This document shows, piece by piece, positions 36,720 to 45,485 of a stretch of 64,000 nt of DNA. Position numbers and translations under genes: made by a program. Each line of letters opens with the position of its first letter. The stretch's first letter is position 1. Location of the stretch: NCBI GenBank assembly GCA_043817075.1, contig JBDRHG010000014.1:21989-85988 (forward strand), in the 5' to 3' direction. A model generated the notes under the pieces. That model had not been told where the DNA came from, did no database searches, and was given only the letters and a program-made list of their open reading frames with translations. The DNA is from an archaeon (lineage in GTDB: Archaea; Nanobdellota; Nanobdellia; Woesearchaeales; JAADFO01).

Positions 36720-38441
36720 ATGGAGAACATATTCTTCGACATCGGTATCATCATCATCATAGCGACCATTGTAGGTTTCATCGCCCGATTGCTCAAGCAG
36801 CCGCTCATCCCTTCATACATCATCGCCGGTGTCATCATCGGACCTCTCGTGCTCAAGCTCATCGATGACGCTGCGACAATCACCATCCTCTCAGAGATCG
36901 GCATCGCCTTCCTCCTGTTCGTCGTCGGCATCGAGTTCAATTTCAAGAAACTCCGCGACACCGGCATGTACTCTTCAGTGGGAAGTCTCATACGTATGGC
37001 CTTTCTCTTCGGCCTGGGCTATTTCGTCGCGATATCGCTCGGTGTGTTCTCCTCGATAGAAGCTGTCTATCTCGGCCTCATGATCGTGTTCTCGTCCACC
37101 ATGGTCGTGGTCAAGCTACTCGCCGACAAGGATGAGCTTGATACCCTGCACGGACGCATCATCATCGGCGTGTTGCTCATGGAGGACCTCGTAGCCATCC
37201 TGGCAATGAGCGCATTGACCACCTTGGACAACTTCTCGGCCCTGTTCTTCATCGGCGCGTTGTTCAAAGGTCTGCTTCTCTTCGGCGCGACCATCGCATT
37301 GGGTCGCTGGGTTTTCCCCACCATCTTCAAGCTGGCGGCAAAGAGCACCGAGATACTCTTCTTATGCTCCCTCACCGTCTGTTTCCTGTTCACATTCGCC
37401 GCCTCATCGATGGGCTTCTCGATAACTGTGGGAGCATTCCTCGCCGGCCTATCGCTTGCCAACCTGCCGTACAACCTTGAGATCGTGTCCAGGGTCAAGC
37501 CACTACGCGACTTCTTCTCGACCATCTTCTTCGTTACACTAGGCATGGAGATCGTGGGTCTGTCGCTTGACCGAATCGCGATCCCCCTCCTCGTGTTCAC
37601 CCTCTTCGTAGTGGCGCTCAAGCCGCTGGCCGTGATGCTGCTCGCACGAATGTTCGGTTATGGCAGAAGGACCGCGTTCTTGACCGGCATCACATTGGCG
37701 CAGACCAGCGAGTTCGCGCTCATCATCGCCGCGCAAGGGCATATGCTCGGACATATCAGCAAAGACATTTTCGTGATGGCCGTCCTGCTCTCCACCGCGA
37801 CGCTCACCGTGACATCATATCTGATCAAATACGACAACAACCTCTACTTCCTCCTCGCAAAAAGGCTCCGCATACTCGACAAGATAGGGAGCGACAAGCA
37901 CACATTGGAATACATGCCCGAGAAGCAGGACTATGACGTCATCCTGGTCGGATATGACCGTATAGCGTATTCGATCTCTCTCAAGCTCCAGAAGATGAAC
38001 AAGAAATACCTCGTCATCGATTTCAATCCTGACCTTATCAGGCGCCTCATCCATGAGAAGATCCCGTGCATCTATGGCGATGTGGGAGACATCGAGATCC
38101 TCAACAGGCTCAATTTCAAGAAGGCCGAGATCGTCATAAGCACCGCGCCCGAGGTCCAGGACAACAAGCTGCTCATCAACAAGGTCAAACATACCAATCC
38201 CAACATCGCTGTGTTCGTCACCGCAAATCGCATCGACGAGGCATTGGAGATGTACGATTTCGGCGCTGATTACGTCATCCTCCCCCATTTCCTCGGAGGC
38301 GATCATGTCTCCATATTGCTTGAGGACGTGACTTCAGACATCAACAAGCTTCTCCAGAACAAAATCAGCCATATCGAAGAGCTACGCGAGAGGAAGAAAC
38401 GCGGACATGAGCACCCTCACAAGCTGACCCATCACACCTGA
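36720..38441 (+). CDS. CPA2 (Kef-type) monovalent cation:proton antiporter with C-terminal RCK/TrkA-N domain
   Basis: About 12 TM Na_H exchanger-like core followed by a Rossmann-like VILVGYDRIAYSI domain. Confidence 0.8.
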   Translation: MENIFFDIGIIIIIATIVGFIARLLKQPLIPSYIIAGVIIGPLVLKLIDDAATITILSEIGIAFLLFVVGIEFNFKKLRDTGMYSSVGSLIRMAFLFGLGYFVAISLGVFSSIEAVYLGLMIVFSSTMVVVKLLADKDELDTLHGRIIIGVLLMEDLVAILAMSALTTLDNFSALFFIGALFKGLLLFGATIALGRWVFPTIFKLAAKSTEILFLCSLTVCFLFTFAASSMGFSITVGAFLAGLSLANLPYNLEIVSRVKPLRDFFSTIFFVTLGMEIVGLSLDRIAIPLLVFTLFVVALKPLAVMLLARMFGYGRRTAFLTGITLAQTSEFALIIAAQGHMLGHISKDIFVMAVLLSTATLTVTSYLIKYDNNLYFLLAKRLRILDKIGSDKHTLEYMPEKQDYDVILVGYDRIAYSISLKLQKMNKKYLVIDFNPDLIRRLIHEKIPCIYGDVGDIEILNRLNFKKAEIVISTAPEVQDNKLLINKVKHTNPNIAVFVTANRIDEALEMYDFGADYVILPHFLGGDHVSILLEDVTSDINKLLQNKISHIEELRERKKRGHEHPHKLTHHT

Positions 38442-38474: not shown

Positions 38475-39173
38475 CTATAGTCCCAGGTTTCTTGCCACCA
38501 TGATGATATCACGGACAGATATCTGACCATCGACGTCAACGTCTACGTCGGCCTCGAAGTCCTGACGTCCGAAATTACGGGCCACCAGGATGATGTCTTT
38601 GATCGTCACCCTGCCATCCCTATCAACGTCAAGACCGTCAGGTTCGTCATCGCCGCCGTCACTGCCGGCGTCGAAATCCCCGATGGCGATCGCCCAATCA
38701 TAGGTGTGCGGCGCCTTGAATTCGATGATGCCCGAAGGATCGTCGCCTCCGCAGTTCGTCCGCGTACCGTCGCAGTCCCAATCGTACCAGGCATTGTTGA
38801 AACCACCGATATGGACGCCGTTGAAACCCTTGCCGACATTGTTATCGATCCAGGTGTTGAACTCGTCCTGGCTGACAGGATCCTGACCCAGGGAGATGCC
38901 CGGCATCATCACCCACGCCGGGATGATGGGCCTTTCCCAGCCTCGGACCCAAAAATGCTTGCCTTTAGCAGTGAGAAGACCCATGGCGTCAGGATTAGGG
39001 CTGCAGATGACTGTTCCTGTGAGACCGTCGAGGTCGTTGTCGGCCGAGGTCGTCGTGAAGGTGTGAATGCCTTCTTCGGTGCACATGTAGCGGAGCTTCC
39101 ATGTCGTGCCTCCGTCGTAGAACAGATAAGGTGCGCGGTCGTCCGAGAAGGCCGCTCTCGCATCCAGCCCCAT
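38475..39173 (-). CDS. dockerin-containing protein lacking its signal peptide (5'-truncated relative to the fragment at 39212-39385)
   Basis: Two dockerin type-I repeats at the C-terminus (DVDRDGRVTIKDIILVARNFG and DVDVDGQISVRDIIMVARNLG). The N-terminus starts abruptly in an Ig-like region (YLFYDGGTTWKLRYMCTEEGIHTF) with no secretion signal. Confidence 0.6.
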   Translation of the reverse strand: MGLDARAAFSDDRAPYLFYDGGTTWKLRYMCTEEGIHTFTTTSADNDLDGLTGTVICSPNPDAMGLLTAKGKHFWVRGWERPIIPAWVMMPGISLGQDPVSQDEFNTWIDNNVGKGFNGVHIGGFNNAWYDWDCDGTRTNCGGDDPSGIIEFKAPHTYDWAIAIGDFDAGSDGGDDEPDGLDVDRDGRVTIKDIILVARNFGRQDFEADVDVDVDGQISVRDIIMVARNLGL

Positions 39174-39433: not shown

Positions 39434-39727
39434 ATGATTGACCTAAATGAGCTGCGCAAGCGCGCCAGGGGACTGTCTCCGCTCGTCCAGATCGGTAAAC
39501 GCGGGATGACCGATTCCATGGCAAAAGAGATCAGACGCCAGCTCCAGTCGAAGAAGATCATCAAGGTCCGTATCCTCAAGAGTGCGGTGTCGGAACAGCC
39601 GAAATCCGTGCTGATCCAGGATATCGTCGTCCGATGCGAGGCCGTCCTCGTCGACCAGATCGGCCTCACACTCATTCTGCTGAAAAACAGCAAAGAAGTC
39701 AAGCCAAAGAGCAAGGATAAACAGTAA
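39434..39727 (+). CDS. YhbY/CRM-domain RNA-binding protein
   Basis: LVQIGKRGMTDSMAKEIRRQLQSKKIIKVRIL fits the CRS1_YhbY pattern (iGk.G.t..v..ei...L..hel.Kv.). Confidence 0.7.
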   Translation: MIDLNELRKRARGLSPLVQIGKRGMTDSMAKEIRRQLQSKKIIKVRILKSAVSEQPKSVLIQDIVVRCEAVLVDQIGLTLILLKNSKEVKPKSKDKQ

Positions 39728-39761
39728 GGTTTAAATATCGTCGTGGCAAGATTATCTCGGG

Positions 39762-41231
39762 ATGGTTTCTGGACAGCTCCTCGACGAGTTCGGCTTCACA
39801 GAGGAAGAAAGAGAATCAGGTATGTTCCACAAAGGGACATGGAACTTCGAGAAGACCGGCTTTCCGAAGCCGGACCGGTCTTGGCGTGTCATGCTCGAAG
39901 CATTCGGCCAGTCGATAGAAGAGCCGTATTTCTGGATGCTCAACCATATCCGTCAGACAGTGGGTTATAGTGAGATCGACAAGATCACCGACTTGTTCGC
40001 AGCAGCAGAGCAGAGCTCGTTCTTCGGGGCTGCGCAGTCCCGCCTAGGTATCCAACAGGACAAGGTGAGCCAGTTCCTGGCCACGGTCGGGAAGATGATC
40101 AAAGAGCTCTTCCAGCTCGTGCGGGAGCTCCGCATCATAGATGAGAGGCTAGGTTATTACGCGGACAGCTGGTCGGACAGCAAGAGCAGGGAATCTGCCG
40201 AGATCACACTCAAAGGCATATGGATCGACCTCGTCGAGCAGGGCGCCAAGAACCCTGCGTCTGTCTACGGCATGGCGCGAGAACTGCAGTTCGTCACCCT
40301 GCCAGACCTGTTCTTCTCCATCCATCCCCGGAATGCGGAACAGGTCGACGAATTCGTCAATAGGCTCGACGAATTCAACCGGAAGGTCCGCGAAGTCCTC
40401 AAACGCAAGCTCCGTTCGTTCATCGAGTGGAAACATGCCACGAACAAGGAGCTCAACACCCGACGGACATTCACCATCAAGTATCTCCGGCAGCACTACG
40501 ACATCATCCAGATGTACATGAACTGGGTCAAGCCATATCTCCATAATATCCAACGCCTGCAGATGGCTGAACGGAGCGGCAGCCCCGACCTGGTCAATGC
40601 ATTCGAAGGTGCTCTCGTCGAGATCGAACTGCTGGCCAAGAAACTGCCCATGAAGACGGACCTCGACAGTGAACCGCACCGCAACACCTCGGTGTACTCG
40701 GTGATGCTGGTCAATTTCAATTTCCGCACCCGTCCCCAGATGAGCTTCCAACAGGAAGGTTACCACAAAGGACCCATCCATGTCGGCAGACTGGATATGG
40801 ATATCCGCACCTATGCCTGGGACGGAGAGAAGATCGAGAAATACAAGAAGATGAAAGAGAAAGAGACGTTCGAACTCATGATGCACGTCGATGAGTCGGT
40901 ACGGACCGCGATGGACTCGATGGGTGAAGAGATGCTGAAATATCTCGAAGAGGCTGGCGAGGAGATGAAGAAGAAGGACGAGCCTGAGAAGAAGAAACCG
41001 AAAGGGTCCAGCGCATTGGAGCCCTTCATCGGCGTCGTCAAGGGATTCGGAGACCTTCTCGGTCCGCTCGCAGGCATGACCAGCAGCGCGGTGAAGGGAA
41101 AAAAGGTCTCGGGCAAGCAGAAATACAAGCTCGCCTACGAGAGCAAGGTGGCCGCGAGCGAAGCCAAGTCCAACGCCTTCATCCTATATCATTTCTTCAA
41201 GAAGGACCGTGGAATGCTGGAGTGGGGATGA
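39762..41231 (+). CDS. hypothetical 489-aa soluble protein with Lys-rich, amphipathic C-terminal tail
   Basis: Long ORF with normal composition. No NTPase or other motif I recognise. First gene of a tightly packed co-directional set. Confidence 0.6.
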   Translation: MVSGQLLDEFGFTEEERESGMFHKGTWNFEKTGFPKPDRSWRVMLEAFGQSIEEPYFWMLNHIRQTVGYSEIDKITDLFAAAEQSSFFGAAQSRLGIQQDKVSQFLATVGKMIKELFQLVRELRIIDERLGYYADSWSDSKSRESAEITLKGIWIDLVEQGAKNPASVYGMARELQFVTLPDLFFSIHPRNAEQVDEFVNRLDEFNRKVREVLKRKLRSFIEWKHATNKELNTRRTFTIKYLRQHYDIIQMYMNWVKPYLHNIQRLQMAERSGSPDLVNAFEGALVEIELLAKKLPMKTDLDSEPHRNTSVYSVMLVNFNFRTRPQMSFQQEGYHKGPIHVGRLDMDIRTYAWDGEKIEKYKKMKEKETFELMMHVDESVRTAMDSMGEEMLKYLEEAGEEMKKKDEPEKKKPKGSSALEPFIGVVKGFGDLLGPLAGMTSSAVKGKKVSGKQKYKLAYESKVAASEAKSNAFILYHFFKKDRGMLEWG

Positions 41232-41692
41232 TGGTAACACGCAAGGACCTCGAGGACCTGCCATTGGCCGAACGCATCTCTAAACTCCGCGATATGGAGA
41301 AGAAAGCGGAAAAAGAGATCGCTGAGGCAAAGCAATTACGGAGCGAGATCGAGGAAGAGATCGCCAGAGAACGGACGATCGAAGGCATCGAGGTCCCAAG
41401 ATCAGAGCCGGTCGATGTCGCAAAACTCTTCTTCTCGAGCGAAGGCCTCGAGGCAAAAGCGGTGCTTGAACAGGAGGCTGACAAGGATTTCCAGGCCGAA
41501 TACCTCAGCGTACTGGAGGGCGGAGAGTTGTCAGCGCCCGACGACCTCTATGTGACATCGGTCATCAACATCATCGACAAGCTCGATGACCTGCTCGACG
41601 GGATCAAATACCATCTACCGCAGGACAAGATGAGCGGCGCCACTGCGTCGGCGTCGGTAGCGGACCGCATCAGACGATACACAAGAGGATAG
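41228..41692 (+). CDS. hypothetical acidic coiled-coil protein
   Basis: The start ATGA overlaps the upstream stop. Heptad-like charged N-terminal half (KLRDMEKKAEKEIAEAKQLRSEIEEEIARE). Confidence 0.55.
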   Translation: MMVTRKDLEDLPLAERISKLRDMEKKAEKEIAEAKQLRSEIEEEIARERTIEGIEVPRSEPVDVAKLFFSSEGLEAKAVLEQEADKDFQAEYLSVLEGGELSAPDDLYVTSVINIIDKLDDLLDGIKYHLPQDKMSGATASASVADRIRRYTRG

Positions 41693-41713
41693 GCCAAGAA
41701 GACCGCAGGGACG

Positions 41714-42022
41714 ATGATGGCGGATCAGGACGGCATGAATGAGGCATTCAATCCTATTGGACTTGTCTATGGGCTCGCGTTCTGGGTCGGATTCATCATC
41801 TGCTTCATATCTCTACTGTTCTTCAGCCTCCATGCCGCCGCGGGGATCGTCGCGTGGCTTGCCGGCGCTGCGTTGATAGTGTTCTCGGCCAGCACGACCC
41901 TCAAACAGGTCAGGGAAGGCGGCCAAGGGGCGTTTCCCATCCTGAATCTCATACTCAAGATATTCTTCATGCTACTGGCGCTCGGCATCTTCGTGATCGG
42001 GCTCATGTCTTCGATTTCATGA
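41714..42022 (+). CDS. hypothetical small membrane protein (3 TM)
   Basis: 102 aa with three clear hydrophobic spans. Confidence 0.55.
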   Translation: MMADQDGMNEAFNPIGLVYGLAFWVGFIICFISLLFFSLHAAAGIVAWLAGAALIVFSASTTLKQVREGGQGAFPILNLILKIFFMLLALGIFVIGLMSSIS

Positions 42023-42088
42023 AGGGTCATCAACAGGATCCATCAGCGTCGGTAACATTTATATATCAGAGACACGGGAGAAAGACCC

Positions 42089-44329
42089 ATGGAATTCAAC
42101 AACGGACCATCGCTATATCATTCACGTGTGGATTCCTGGCCTAGCGCGCCTCTCGGCGTCGAGGAGCCCCCATTGCCACGGCAGGATTGGGAGGCTGGAG
42201 ACAATTCCGACAAGCTGTCTGTCAAGGATATCGGCATGAGCGTGCCTTTCGGCATCGCGGCCGGAAATGTCCAGGGGGTCGAAGCCAAGATCCGCTCAGG
42301 TGCAGGACATCTCGAGCTGCAATTCCCCGGCGCAGGCGGAGGCAACCGCCAGAGCCAAGTCCCAGGGATGTATGGCAAGGAACAGCGCCAGGCATTGCGC
42401 GAGATGAGCAAGGTCAATGATGTCGCATTCACCACCCACGCATCATTCTCGGTGATGGGCGTCACCGGCGCGGACCAGCAGGGGAACATGAATCTCTCCC
42501 AAGGCAAGCAGTCGTACGACGAGATCGTCCGCGCTATCGACTTCGCCAAGGACGTAGCCGACGGCGGCTCGGTCACGGTGCATGTGGGCGAGTTCGAACG
42601 ACCGCTGACGCATATCTATCCCGACGGCGTCATGATGGACGACAAAGGCGACCTCACCAGGAACTACTCCCGGGAACCCAAGACAGGTCGGCTGCAATTC
42701 CAGAAGCATCCCTTCGAAGCCCAGAAGGCCCAGTTCGGCCTCGTCGATGATAGGACTGGTCAGACATTCACAACAGTCCAGCTCGATCGTACCGTGGCAC
42801 AGCCCATTTGGCGCAAGGCCGACAAAGATTACACCGACATGATGGGACGGACAGTCAAGACCGGCGACTATATCGACTATGAGGAGAATCTTATCGACGA
42901 TCCCTACGCCATCAAATTCGAGATGGGCGATGAGGACAAGTTCGATGGCGCCCGGGTGCCTGAGATCAACGAACAGACCGGCCGCTTCGAGACCGAGATG
43001 AAATCGCTCGAGGACTTCGAACGAGAGGCAAAAGAGTACAACGACTATTTCCGTAGGGTACAAGGCCGCGATCCTACGCCGTACGAGCGCATGACCGGAA
43101 AAGAGATGTATATGAAGTCGACGCTGTGGACGCGGGCGGGGTACGCCTACGGATGGGCGCTCAATTTCTCATCAGACGTGCCCGAGCTCAAGACGAAATT
43201 GTCCAAACTCCACGAGCTCCGCGAATACTATAAGGAACTGGACGAAAATATCCCACAGGATGAGAAATGGAAGATTGTCAGACAGTCAGCGAAATACCGC
43301 ACCCACTGGCACGACCTCGTCCCTCCCGAATCCAAGAACCCTATGGAGCTCATCGACCAGGACATCGACGAGACCAGGAAGAGGCTCGAATACGCCTGGC
43401 AGTCAGGAAACACGCAGGAGCTTGAGGCCATCGACCAGTTCGAGACCATGCGTCATCTCAAGACGCCGGAGAAGTACTTCGAGAAGTACGGGACGGATTT
43501 CTACGCCATGGCAGGGATCAAGGCGGCAGATGCGAGCCAGAAGACAAAAAAGCCGGTGACGGTCACTTTGGAGCACATCTTCCCCGAACGATTCGGAGGT
43601 CATCCGCAAGAGCTCAAGTGGATCATCAACAAAGCGCGCGACCGCATGGTCGAGATGATGACGAGCCCAAAGATCGACGGTCATGTGTCCGAGGGACAAT
43701 GGTTCAAACAGGAAGGACAGGAGAACCGGGAATACGGCCCCTTCCTGCAAGGACAGAATCCGTATTTCCGTCAAGGCATGAGCAGGGAAGAGGCCAGGAA
43801 ACTGGCTGAACAGTCCATCAAGGCCACGATCGACACCGGCCACCTCAACATGTGGCGGAAATATTATGTCGACGACCCCAACAAGAGCGTCGACGAGAAC
43901 GAGAAACAATTCAATAGCTGGATGGTCGGGCAGATGGAGGATTTGGCCAAAGACGGCCTCATCGGCAACGTGCATCTCTCCGACAACTTCGGCTTCCATG
44001 ATACCCATCTCGCCCCAGGACAAGGGAATGCACCTGTCCGGGAAATCGTCAAGGCAATCAAGAAACACGGGTATAACGAACGTATCATCGTCGAGCCGGG
44101 GGCGGACGCCACGACCGGCAACTCTGACTTCCATGGATTGATGAAGACCTGGGAGCATTTCGGGGCCACCAACTACATGGGCCATTTCCCCGGTGTCGGA
44201 GCGCCGCCGCCTCAGTTCGCTGACGTTCACTACGGTTACTTCGGCCGGAGCTATCCGCCGAATTTCGTCTTCGGGGCTTATGCGCCGAGCAACGACTGGA
44301 CGCTATGGAGCGGCGTCCAGATGGAATGA
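42089..44329 (+). CDS. xylose-isomerase-like TIM-barrel (AP_endonuc_2 fold) protein with ~330-aa insertion
   Basis: The family strand motifs appear in order: GHLELQF, THASF, VTVHVGE, then after a long helical insertion VTLEH, IDTGHLNMW, VHLSDNFG..DTHL..GQG and IIVEPG. Confidence 0.6.
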   Translation: MEFNNGPSLYHSRVDSWPSAPLGVEEPPLPRQDWEAGDNSDKLSVKDIGMSVPFGIAAGNVQGVEAKIRSGAGHLELQFPGAGGGNRQSQVPGMYGKEQRQALREMSKVNDVAFTTHASFSVMGVTGADQQGNMNLSQGKQSYDEIVRAIDFAKDVADGGSVTVHVGEFERPLTHIYPDGVMMDDKGDLTRNYSREPKTGRLQFQKHPFEAQKAQFGLVDDRTGQTFTTVQLDRTVAQPIWRKADKDYTDMMGRTVKTGDYIDYEENLIDDPYAIKFEMGDEDKFDGARVPEINEQTGRFETEMKSLEDFEREAKEYNDYFRRVQGRDPTPYERMTGKEMYMKSTLWTRAGYAYGWALNFSSDVPELKTKLSKLHELREYYKELDENIPQDEKWKIVRQSAKYRTHWHDLVPPESKNPMELIDQDIDETRKRLEYAWQSGNTQELEAIDQFETMRHLKTPEKYFEKYGTDFYAMAGIKAADASQKTKKPVTVTLEHIFPERFGGHPQELKWIINKARDRMVEMMTSPKIDGHVSEGQWFKQEGQENREYGPFLQGQNPYFRQGMSREEARKLAEQSIKATIDTGHLNMWRKYYVDDPNKSVDENEKQFNSWMVGQMEDLAKDGLIGNVHLSDNFGFHDTHLAPGQGNAPVREIVKAIKKHGYNERIIVEPGADATTGNSDFHGLMKTWEHFGATNYMGHFPGVGAPPPQFADVHYGYFGRSYPPNFVFGAYAPSNDWTLWSGVQME

Positions 44330-44345
44330 TCACACAGGTGAAAAC

Positions 44346-45485
44346 ATGGGACATGTCGAATGGGAAAAGATAATTGACGTGAAGTATGTCGATGCGGGTT
44401 TTGATTTGGTAAACAATGATGGTCAGAAAGGAGTTAGATTCTCTTGGTCGCCTACTGGCCGAATCCAAACAGTTTTCCCCGGCATCATCATCACGGGAAG
44501 AGTGAAGAGCCACCTCTTTTCCTTGGTGGAGAATAAGATTTGTCATTGGTTCCCGATCGAAATTTGTCCGGAATTAAGATTGATCTCAGTGGAAGCCAAG
44601 AAAGCGGGTGCGGTCGCAATCATCAAAGATATTGAGTATCGAAAGAAGAGTGGCTACTACAAGAAACACGGTATCTTCCCTTTCCACATTGAGCTGAAGA
44701 GCTTCCTCCATGGCCATGTTGAAGAACCGAAATTCACCAAACAAATCAAGAAACTTCTGGTCGATAAAAACCTCATGGATGCGCAAGGAGCGCATGAGAT
44801 CCTCCACATCATGGGACGGCTTTTTGATGCACGGAAAGGACTGGATAGCAATCAAAACAGCGACCTCAGTCCAGTCAAGGAAAAACTCAGACTGTTGCTC
44901 GATACGTTTTCCGGGTACTATGACAGGCGGTATGGTTCGCCATTGAGGAAAAAATTCAATGGTCTGAAACACACGCTCTATCAGATTCAGCATATCTCCA
45001 CAAAAACTCCAAGTGAGACCGTTCATTATGTCATGGGTAAGTTCACCCTTCTGATGCACGAGTTCATTGATGAATGTTCACATGCAGGAGAGTATTGGGA
45101 TGAAGTGGCGAAATTCTGTGAACAATTCATTTCGTCGAGGGGAGCGGTCGCAATAAAGGCTACGTTCCCTCATTCCAGTTATAGGAACAGTATTCGCAAT
45201 GCAGAAAGGATTGGGAACGGCGAAATCACCTCTGAACCTTTCAAGCTGGAGATCCCAGATCCAGCGCATGCGAACGGTGATGAACTCAAACAATACTACA
45301 ACAAGGCCATCCCCGTCATCCAACAATATTTTAGGGAGAACCAGTACTTTCAATTATCAGGCAGGAAAGGGACTTATATCTTCCAGATGACGTCGCTGGG
45401 CTGCAAACTCGATGGTACCCTGCTGCAGCCAACAACATACGACACGATGGATATCGATATCCCGGAGAGAACTGATCTTAAGTAA
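44346..45485 (+). CDS. hypothetical protein, compositionally AT-shifted orphan
   Basis: 379-aa ORF from MGHVEWEKI; the track start at 44193 overlaps the previous gene. Visibly more A/T-rich than the flanks. No recognisable domain. Confidence 0.5.
   Translation: MGHVEWEKIIDVKYVDAGFDLVNNDGQKGVRFSWSPTGRIQTVFPGIIITGRVKSHLFSLVENKICHWFPIEICPELRLISVEAKKAGAVAIIKDIEYRKKSGYYKKHGIFPFHIELKSFLHGHVEEPKFTKQIKKLLVDKNLMDAQGAHEILHIMGRLFDARKGLDSNQNSDLSPVKEKLRLLLDTFSGYYDRRYGSPLRKKFNGLKHTLYQIQHISTKTPSETVHYVMGKFTLLMHEFIDECSHAGEYWDEVAKFCEQFISSRGAVAIKATFPHSSYRNSIRNAERIGNGEITSEPFKLEIPDPAHANGDELKQYYNKAIPVIQQYFRENQYFQLSGRKGTYIFQMTSLGCKLDGTLLQPTTYDTMDIDIPERTDLK

Follow-up and report, generated by a model that had tools for sequence, protein, structure and literature searches.

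The closest described relatives of the system reported here are barrel enzymes of the AP_endonuc_2 (PF01261) type. Endonuclease IV (Endo IV) of Escherichia coli, Nfo, is a compact, uninterrupted barrel of ~280 aa. The archaeal Endo IV PfuAPE (PF0258), which is 13.5% identical to Nfo, is a genuine apurinic/apyrimidinic (AP) endonuclease, and MJ1311 is listed as a predicted Endo IV homologue of Methanocaldococcus jannaschii (Kiyonari et al. 2009, PMC2770678). The solved structure of MJ1311 (PDB 3WQO) was deposited as a 'D-tagatose 3-epimerase-like protein'. Here we analyzed four co-directional genes, g1 to g4, in a 64,000-nt stretch of DNA (the window) from a genome of the archaeal order Woesearchaeales; g4 encodes a 746-aa member of this barrel superfamily. 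An earlier reading made from the letters without database searches (the sequence-only reading) took the four genes for an operon that encodes a membrane-associated complex. Our data make it very probable that g1, g2 and g4 constitute a module that nearly all Nanoarchaeia (Woesearchaeales, Pacearchaeales and relatives) carry and inherit vertically, that the metal site of its enzyme is multinuclear and of the Endo IV type, with a large insertion over the active site, and that g3 lies outside this module.

Among proteins of solved structure, MJ1311 is the best relative of g4 (profile E 1.7e-7), and it is also among the top Foldseek matches. The two proteins have in common an H-x-x-D-N...D-x-H-L-x-x-G-x-G-N segment and the strand that follows it. 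However, MJ1311 is an uninterrupted barrel (deposited chain, 293 residues) without the insertion, the conserved C-terminal tail and the g1 and g2 partners that characterize g4. Nfo belongs to the same barrel superfamily and its nine metal ligands are matched in g4, but g4 is far longer, carries an insertion of ~317 aa and is acidic. The PF01261 epimerases, such as D-tagatose 3-epimerase and UlaE, share with g4 the triosephosphate isomerase (TIM) barrel and the core E-D-H-E ligands; unlike g4, they have no insertion, and QNR replaces the D-x-H loop of g4. Nor are they known to have the two histidine ligands of the N-terminal half. No description of the module was found in full-text literature searches and targeted look-ups.

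The assembly of the window genome comprises 1.52 Mb and is 89.9% complete. It was compared with 40 relatives, about one per genus (41 genomes in total, the order sample), and with 201 genomes of the class Nanoarchaeia (the class sample). A match to g4 is present in 40 of the 41 order genomes, the window genome included, and a match to g1 in 38; g2 is detectable in 14, each time beside g1 or g4. At the class level, g1 was found in 175 and g4 in 173 of the 201 genomes. Relatives of g1 number 528 among 1.84 billion cluster representatives, and a scan of GTDB species genomes for g1 gave 318 loci, of which 80 were retained. DPANN-type record titles stand on all 80, and titles reading 'uncultured Methanosarcinales' among the retained loci look like pipeline labels. 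Three order genomes have no detectable g1. In two of them (G001 and G040), a contig breaks off at g2 or g4; in the other, G030, which belongs to the same order and is 94% complete, g1, g2, g4 and the orthologue of the nucleotidyltransferase (NTase) gene that often adjoins g4 all went undetected. G030 does have a ~617-aa NTase paralogue, as do the other genomes. The gap in G030 reflects either co-loss or one unassembled contig or block. The expectation that all four genes would be co-conserved thus holds in part: g1, g2 and g4 are co-conserved and clustered, whereas g3 was found in the window genome only. Because g1, g2 and g4 stay together in this way elsewhere, they represent a dedicated module rather than a fragment of a standard metabolic pathway, in agreement with the sequence-only reading, which had judged the latter unlikely.

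The assignment of g4 to the barrel superfamily, proposed earlier from a series of strand motifs, was borne out by profile comparison. PF01261 matches residues 565-671 of g4 with 46.8 bits against a gathering cut-off of 31.1, covering profile positions 137-230 of 249, and it scores above the cut-off in all 49 sequences of the order-level g4 alignment (best E 2e-20). All the motifs were located, namely HLELQF (75-80), THASF (116-120), VHVGE (164-168), LEH (494-496), DTGHLNMW (582-589), VHLSDN (628-633) and VEPG (668-671). In the AlphaFold2 (AF2) model of g4, which is a predicted and not a solved structure (predicted local distance difference test score, pLDDT, 74.9; predicted template modelling score, pTM, 0.76), they sit on or just past barrel strands. 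The eight strands of the model span residues 48-54, 74-78, 113-117, 160-165, 490-495, 577-582, 625-631 and 666-669, so that both halves of the chain build one (beta/alpha)8 barrel, with four strands up to residue 165 and four from residue 490. Whole-chain Foldseek searches returned 3wqo, UlaE and AsfvAP, all as weak matches (E >=0.01).

To compare the metal sites, the nine ligands of E. coli Nfo were verified on its sequence (H69, H109, E145, D179, H182, H216, D229, H231 and E261) and the barrel parts of g4 and Nfo were aligned with hhalign. The alignment has an E value of 0.15; because this is weak, the match is to be read as a motif-level correspondence. It pairs H117, H165, D582, H585, H629, D638 and H640 of g4 with H69, H109, D179, H182, H216, D229 and H231 of Nfo, respectively, and E495 and E669 were assigned from their places at the ends of strands beta5 and beta8 in the AF2 model, like E145 and E261 of Nfo. 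All nine equivalents are invariant in the 49 order-level sequences. In a check of 18 distant members of the class (loci L108-L127), H117, H165, E495, D582, H585, H629 and E669 are invariant as well, and the pair at positions 638 and 640 reads D..H in nine members, H..E in six and mixed in three. The H..E swap retains two side chains predicted to bind metal, and the covariation suggests that both side chains act together. We take the H117/H165 and D638-x-H640 positions to be those that hold metals 1 and 3 in Endo IV. Since the D-tagatose epimerases have QNR at the position of the DTH of g4 in the alignment and the epimerase models score far below their cut-offs, g4 is assigned by its sequence to the Endo IV/MJ1311 branch of the AP_endonuc_2 barrels and not to the sugar-epimerase branch.

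The barrel of g4 is split by a large insertion, as the sequence-only reading had stated, but its position, size and composition required revision: instead of a roughly 330-aa helical element between strands 3 and 4, the insertion comprises ~317 aa (residues 173-489), is partly beta and lies between beta4 and beta5, because the first strand (48-54) is now counted. In the model, it consists of a beta-rich part (~180-305) and a helical bundle (307-483), with pLDDT of ~90 over most of its length. It begins straight after beta4 and ligand H165, and helix 460-483 leads back to beta5, which ends at ligand E495. Given the general topology of (beta/alpha)8 barrels, an insertion in a beta-to-alpha loop would lie on the catalytic face, and the exit straight after one ligand and the return just before another argue that it is placed over the active site. 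Across the class, the insertion is 170-347 aa long; no Pfam family matches it in any of the 49 members, and the whole-chain Foldseek matches concerned the barrel only. The C-terminal 52 residues of g4 have pLDDT below 50, yet they are near-invariant in the order, including an invariant E746 at the very end, and this tail is presumed from the model to be a docking peptide.

The g1 protein is 50-65% identical across the order, with long invariant stretches. That none of g1, g2 and g3 has a nameable family was corroborated by the family searches of the window proteins (Pfam, NCBIfam, PADLOC and PHROG), which returned zero matches for the three. For g1, Pfam gave coiled-coil noise only (for example, DivIVA at E 0.018 or worse), profile searches gave no PDB match, and Foldseek searches against PDB and BFVD gave nothing at E <1e-3; EnvC, EmrA, Cyt toxins, STAT and levivirus maturation proteins were considered as fold candidates and rejected at template modelling scores (TM-scores) <=0.26. 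The predicted g1 model (pLDDT 75.9) has a beta/alpha base built from residues 14-81 and 284-354, from which two helices of 50-60 residues extend (86-137 and 207-267), the latter with a net charge of +11. Short helices between the long ones (residues 146-186) form the tip, which is the most conserved segment. The tail is basic and disordered, with PF (421-422) and KK (480-481) conserved class-wide. Residues invariant throughout the class are mostly aromatic or hydrophobic, and none looks catalytic; this pattern fits a scaffold better than an enzyme, and on its sequence g1 is probably a scaffold.

The tail of g1 had been described as a Lys-rich amphipathic segment, and the protein as tail-anchored in appearance. 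The first description is half right, in that residues 407-489 are Lys-rich (net charge +8), but their amphipathicity is weak, the best 18-residue moment being 0.45 at residues 416-433. The second was not upheld: g1 has no transmembrane (TM) segment, its tail is basic and the amphipathic stretch is borderline. A PIP (PCNA-interacting protein) box was also considered at the g1 C-terminus, but the similar motif there (..GML.W) has no Gln and is short of its second aromatic residue, so that none is claimed here.

The description of g2 as acidic was correct (isoelectric point, pI, 4.65; net charge -12). Together with its counterparts, g2 is a charged, low-complexity helical protein that evolves fast while its position in the module is kept. 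The acidic g2 could pair with the basic helix 207-267 of g1, judging from their net charges of -12 and +11. Hydropathy windows of g3 are strongly hydrophobic and fit three TM segments, as claimed; its proposed role as the membrane-anchoring member, however, found no support. It has no match in the 40 relatives, a search of 5.8 billion proteins returned nothing but g3 itself, and a sister species of the same genus has only ~114 nt between g2 and g4, which leaves no room for it. Therefore, g3 is a genome-specific orphan and no subunit of the conserved module. A repeat or mobile element was considered for g3 and rejected, as it is single-copy in its own genome. A hydropathy scan detected no TM-grade hydrophobic window in g1 or g4; with g1, g2 and g4 free of TM segments and the sole membrane protein an orphan, the idea of a membrane-associated complex was not sustained.

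The lengths and coordinates given earlier for the four co-directional open reading frames (ORFs) agree with the ORF list, and the spacing read from the sequence is as described, with an ATGA overlap of g1 and g2, 21 nt between g2 and g3 and 66 nt between g3 and g4. Contiguity of g1, g2 and g4 was found in 13 of 13 loci (12 closer relatives and the window). In the GTDB set, 61 loci have at least 3.2 kb of sequence downstream of g1, and g4 lies downstream of g1 on the same strand in 49 of them. Two gene orders occur: g1-g2-g4, as in the window, and g1-g4-g2, in which g1 and g4 are direct neighbours, 2-300 nt apart, and g4 is followed by an evident homologue of g2. In 20 loci from distant members of the class, the order is Kef, a small YhbY-like ORF, g1, a charged protein of 165-220 aa, g4 (517-715 aa) and a nucleotidyltransferase of ~270 aa; g1 and g4 share a strand there, with no more than two ORFs separating them, in 18 of the loci. 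The linkage between g1 and g4 is thus strong but not obligatory. A trio that is kept while being internally permuted is a stronger sign of a functional link than plain synteny. The small YhbY-like ORF precedes g1 in many relatives as its usual upstream neighbour, and we do not claim it as a member of the module.

The NTase gene stands directly after g4 in 17 of the 20 distant loci and 8 of the 13 closer ones. Its product matches PF18765 and PF01909 above cut-off and is of the kanamycin-nucleotidyltransferase-like minimal NTase (+HEPN-like) protein type. Separately, a gene of ~180 aa (cluster c5) occurs a few genes downstream of g4 or g2 in 23 of 81 loci and is absent from the window; by size and position alone, it fits a small DOT1-like class I methyltransferase (PF08123, E 3e-7) of the related locus L013.

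A single transcript starting after yhbY, as expected by the sequence-only reading, is doubtful from the promoter motifs. Copies of the archaeal TATA pattern TTTAWATA number 16 in the window where 0.69 would be expected, an over-representation of ~23-fold, and 7 of them stand 25-32 nt ahead of an ORF start (ORFs of 60 aa or longer). Such copies are found 32 nt before the ATG of g1 and 31 nt before that of g4. The four genes therefore share direction and are joined by an overlap or short spacers, as in an operon, but an apparent promoter lies inside the group and the set of four is not co-conserved. Because TATA boxes precede both g1 and g4, the likely transcription units are g1-g2(-g3) and g4. 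The TATA-to-start spacing suggests leaderless or very short-leader mRNAs. Sites of the pattern in the window include 33873, 39730, 42058 and 54300.

Beyond the conservation, linkage, barrel family, ligand invariance and insertion topology described above, we infer a working model for the module. In this model, g1, g2 and g4 would form a complex in which g4, as the catalytic subunit, would be a (beta/alpha)8 barrel with a three-metal (at least two-metal) centre, and the insertion over its active-site face would most likely select or clamp the substrate. The g1 protein would serve as a non-enzymatic scaffold or targeting subunit with a helical stalk, a strongly basic helix and a conserved tip, and g2, translationally coupled to g1, would be an acidic, fast-evolving helical adaptor. 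The complex may act on a polymer by hydrolyzing a phosphodiester or a phosphomonoester. A nucleic acid with a damaged or blocked site or 3' end would be its likeliest substrate; a 3'-OH would be left there, and the neighbouring polymerase beta (Pol-beta)-superfamily nucleotidyltransferase of most lineages could extend that end. We consider this model as a whole, with g4 as a hydrolytic phosphoesterase whose substrate, a nucleic-acid lesion or 3' end, is chosen by the insertion and g1 and whose product can be extended by the NTase, to be plausible though not yet probable. A broader version, held only tentatively and on the unlikely side, is that g1-g2-g4, usually with the NTase, is an undescribed core nucleic-acid processing machine of the Nanoarchaeota, in which an Endo IV-type three-metal nuclease has acquired a new substrate via the insertion and g1 and performs housekeeping repair or maturation of DNA or RNA ends that is done otherwise in other archaea. 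Replacement of RNase P by the module was considered and rejected, as RNase P RNA is present in the window genome (111.8 bits).

Several observations weigh against this model. The Nfo model TIGR00587 (cut-off 129.65 bits) has no match at E up to 0.01 in the window genome, g4 included, and the profile-profile match between g4 and true Nfo is weak, as given above. The g4 protein is acidic overall (pI 5.4, net charge -26), and so is its insertion, which is not expected for a DNA- or RNA-binding surface. The apparent promoters of g1 and g4 are separate, g4 is not found within 8 kb downstream of g1 in 12 of the 61 loci, and the window genome has its NTase orthologue (50% identity) on another contig. 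Gene order is also conserved for unrelated housekeeping genes, for example Kef and ribosomal protein genes, so adjacency alone overstates the functional link. Finally, 124 of the 201 class genomes have a separate ORF of ~260-300 aa with no interruption and a match to the Nfo model, which exceeds the cut-off in 8 of them. Therefore, g4 is neither an orthologue of Nfo nor simply the AP endonuclease of the lineage, and its role as the sole such enzyme was rejected as a general reading. The window genome, at its stated completeness, yielded no Nfo, no ExoIII-family protein and no second PF01261 member. Examples of the separate Nfo-like ORF are G120:C10:28558-29175 and G050:C1:71392-71949, and in Nanoarchaeum equitans the short Endo IV-like protein NEQ368 is abundantly expressed.

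The genes could instead be neighbours by inherited gene order in small, slowly rearranging genomes, with g1 and g4 acting independently and forming no complex. Kef, YhbY, NFACT-R, TYW3 and ribosomal protein genes are likewise kept nearby, g1 and g4 each have a TATA box of their own, g4 is away from g1 in the 12 loci just mentioned, and the class genomes without detectable g1 overlap little with those without detectable g4. However, this lack of overlap may reflect detection limits, and a trio that stays together while its internal order is permuted is not what one would predict from simple inheritance of order. Adjacency moreover persists in distant class members with different flanking genes, g1 and g2 are coupled by start and stop codons, and the termini of both large proteins include disordered but conserved peptides, as is typical of docking motifs. 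We regard this explanation as unlikely. Similarly unlikely, if slightly more so, is a true membrane complex, in which g1 would bind the membrane by its basic tail and the motif PF..V.KGFG..L, and g4 would be a trinuclear phosphodiesterase that acts on phospholipid head groups to remodel lipids taken from the host. DPANN archaea depend on host lipids, and phospholipase C also has trinuclear zinc sites. The g1 tail, with its net charge of +8, conserved PF and KK and a segment at the border of the surface-seeking range (moment 0.45, mean hydrophobicity 0.43), is consistent with such a role, as are weak Foldseek matches of g1 to lipid-binding folds (Cyt toxins, START and PYL; probability <=0.25). 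These matches are nevertheless far below significance, g1, g2 and g4 have no TM segment, g3 is an orphan, and the loci examined show no consistent link between the module and any lipid gene.

The barrel itself allows two further interpretations. In the first, g4 would be a soluble metabolic enzyme, a sugar or sugar-phosphate isomerase/epimerase that might serve the salvage of sugars or nucleotide sugars, and g1 and g2 would either be regulators or lie next to it without any relation. Homologues of g4 are indeed named 'sugar phosphate isomerase/epimerase' in databases, weak matches to fructoselysine 3-epimerase, psicose epimerase and D-tagatose 3-epimerase were obtained, the ligands of g4 contain the E-D-H-E four-ligand set, and g4 is acidic like many metabolic enzymes. 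Yet the scores against NCBIfam models, NF007360 and NF051856 among them, are 24.6 vs 305, 13.7 vs 300 and 12.3 vs 353 bits, H117/H165 and D638-x-H640 are invariant in the order, and an insertion of ~317 aa over the catalytic face together with a docking-type tail is unusual for a small-molecule isomerase. DPANN archaea have minimal sugar metabolism, and we consider an isomerase or epimerase improbable. Still less credible is an MNIO (DUF692/MbnB)-type multinuclear-iron oxidase that modifies a protein or peptide; its substrate could be g2 or one of the conserved tails, and g1 would take part in recognition. MNIO enzymes are TIM barrels with a similar His/Asp/Glu multinuclear site and need a partner protein (MbnC for MbnB). 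The weak Foldseek match of g4 to the MbnABC chain 7fc0_E (E 0.14) and the presence of a small co-encoded protein and conserved terminal peptides point in this direction, but even at E up to 1 none of the 49 g4 members matches DUF692, the fast-evolving g2 is devoid of Cys, and the best relatives of g4 are MJ1311 and Endo IV, not MbnB.

Nanoarchaeota (DPANN of the Woese-, Pace- and Nanoarchaeota types) have small genomes, 0.5-1.5 Mb, in which few dispensable genes are retained. With genomes this small, a module found in nearly every genome sampled is likely central to the life of these symbionts. It joins g1, strongly conserved yet like nothing known, to g4, which has a DNA-repair-type metal site under an extra domain of 170-350 residues. 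New in this work are the two gene orders, the class-wide conservation of the ligands with the D/H-to-H/E swap, the TATA boxes inside the presumed operon, the orphan status of g3 and the rejection of g4 as sole AP endonuclease and of the module as a substitute for RNase P. The module proteins g1, g2 and g4 are soluble and tractable in size, which makes the function accessible to direct bench tests.

Table 1. Features of the g1-g4 locus, in positions of the window.
Feature	Coordinates	Strand	Remarks
yhbY: YhbY/CRM-domain RNA-binding protein	39434..39727	+	PF01985, E 6e-17
TATA box TTTAAATA before g1	39730..39737	+	32 nt upstream of the g1 start codon
g1, 489 aa	39762..41231	+	ORF list; conserved, no known relatives
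g2, 154 aa, acidic helical/coiled-coil	41228..41692	+	ATG at 41228; alternative GTG at 41222
g3, 102 aa, hydrophobic orphan, ~3 TM	41714..42022	+	between g2 and g4
TATA box TTTATATA, likely internal promoter	42058..42065	+	31 nt upstream of the g4 start codon
g4 (whole), 746 aa	42089..44329	+	ORF list
g4 N-terminal part: disordered leader (1-45) and beta1-beta4, with H117 (THASF) and H165 (VHVGE)	42089..42604	+	
g4 insertion, residues ~173-489: beta-rich subdomain and helical bundle in the beta4-to-alpha4 loop	42605..43555	+	
g4 C-terminal half-barrel, beta5-beta8: E495, D582/H585 (DTGH), H629 (HLSDN), D638/H640, E669 (VEPG)	43556..44170	+	
g4 aromatic/Gly/Pro-rich tail, residues 695-746, and stop codon	44171..44329	+	conserved

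The surroundings of the module were also inspected. Searches for non-coding RNA in the region returned nothing at E up to 0.1 except a chance long non-coding RNA match, and a defence or phage origin was rejected, with zero PADLOC matches and no meaningful PHROG match. Upstream, a dockerin-domain gene (PF00404, E 7e-6) at 38475-39173 on the minus strand lies between a Kef-type antiporter gene (36720-38441) and yhbY; Kef and YhbY are adjacent in many relatives, and the dockerin gene looks like a local insertion into a conserved string. Further downstream of g4, there is a convergent gene for a CTP-dependent riboflavin kinase. Directly 3' of g4, at 44376-45485 on the plus strand, lies an AT-shifted ORF of ~370 aa (GC content 0.45-0.46, compared with 0.54-0.58 for its neighbours). 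It matches nothing in Pfam, NCBIfam, PADLOC or PHROG and fills the slot that is held by the nucleotidyltransferase gene in most relatives.

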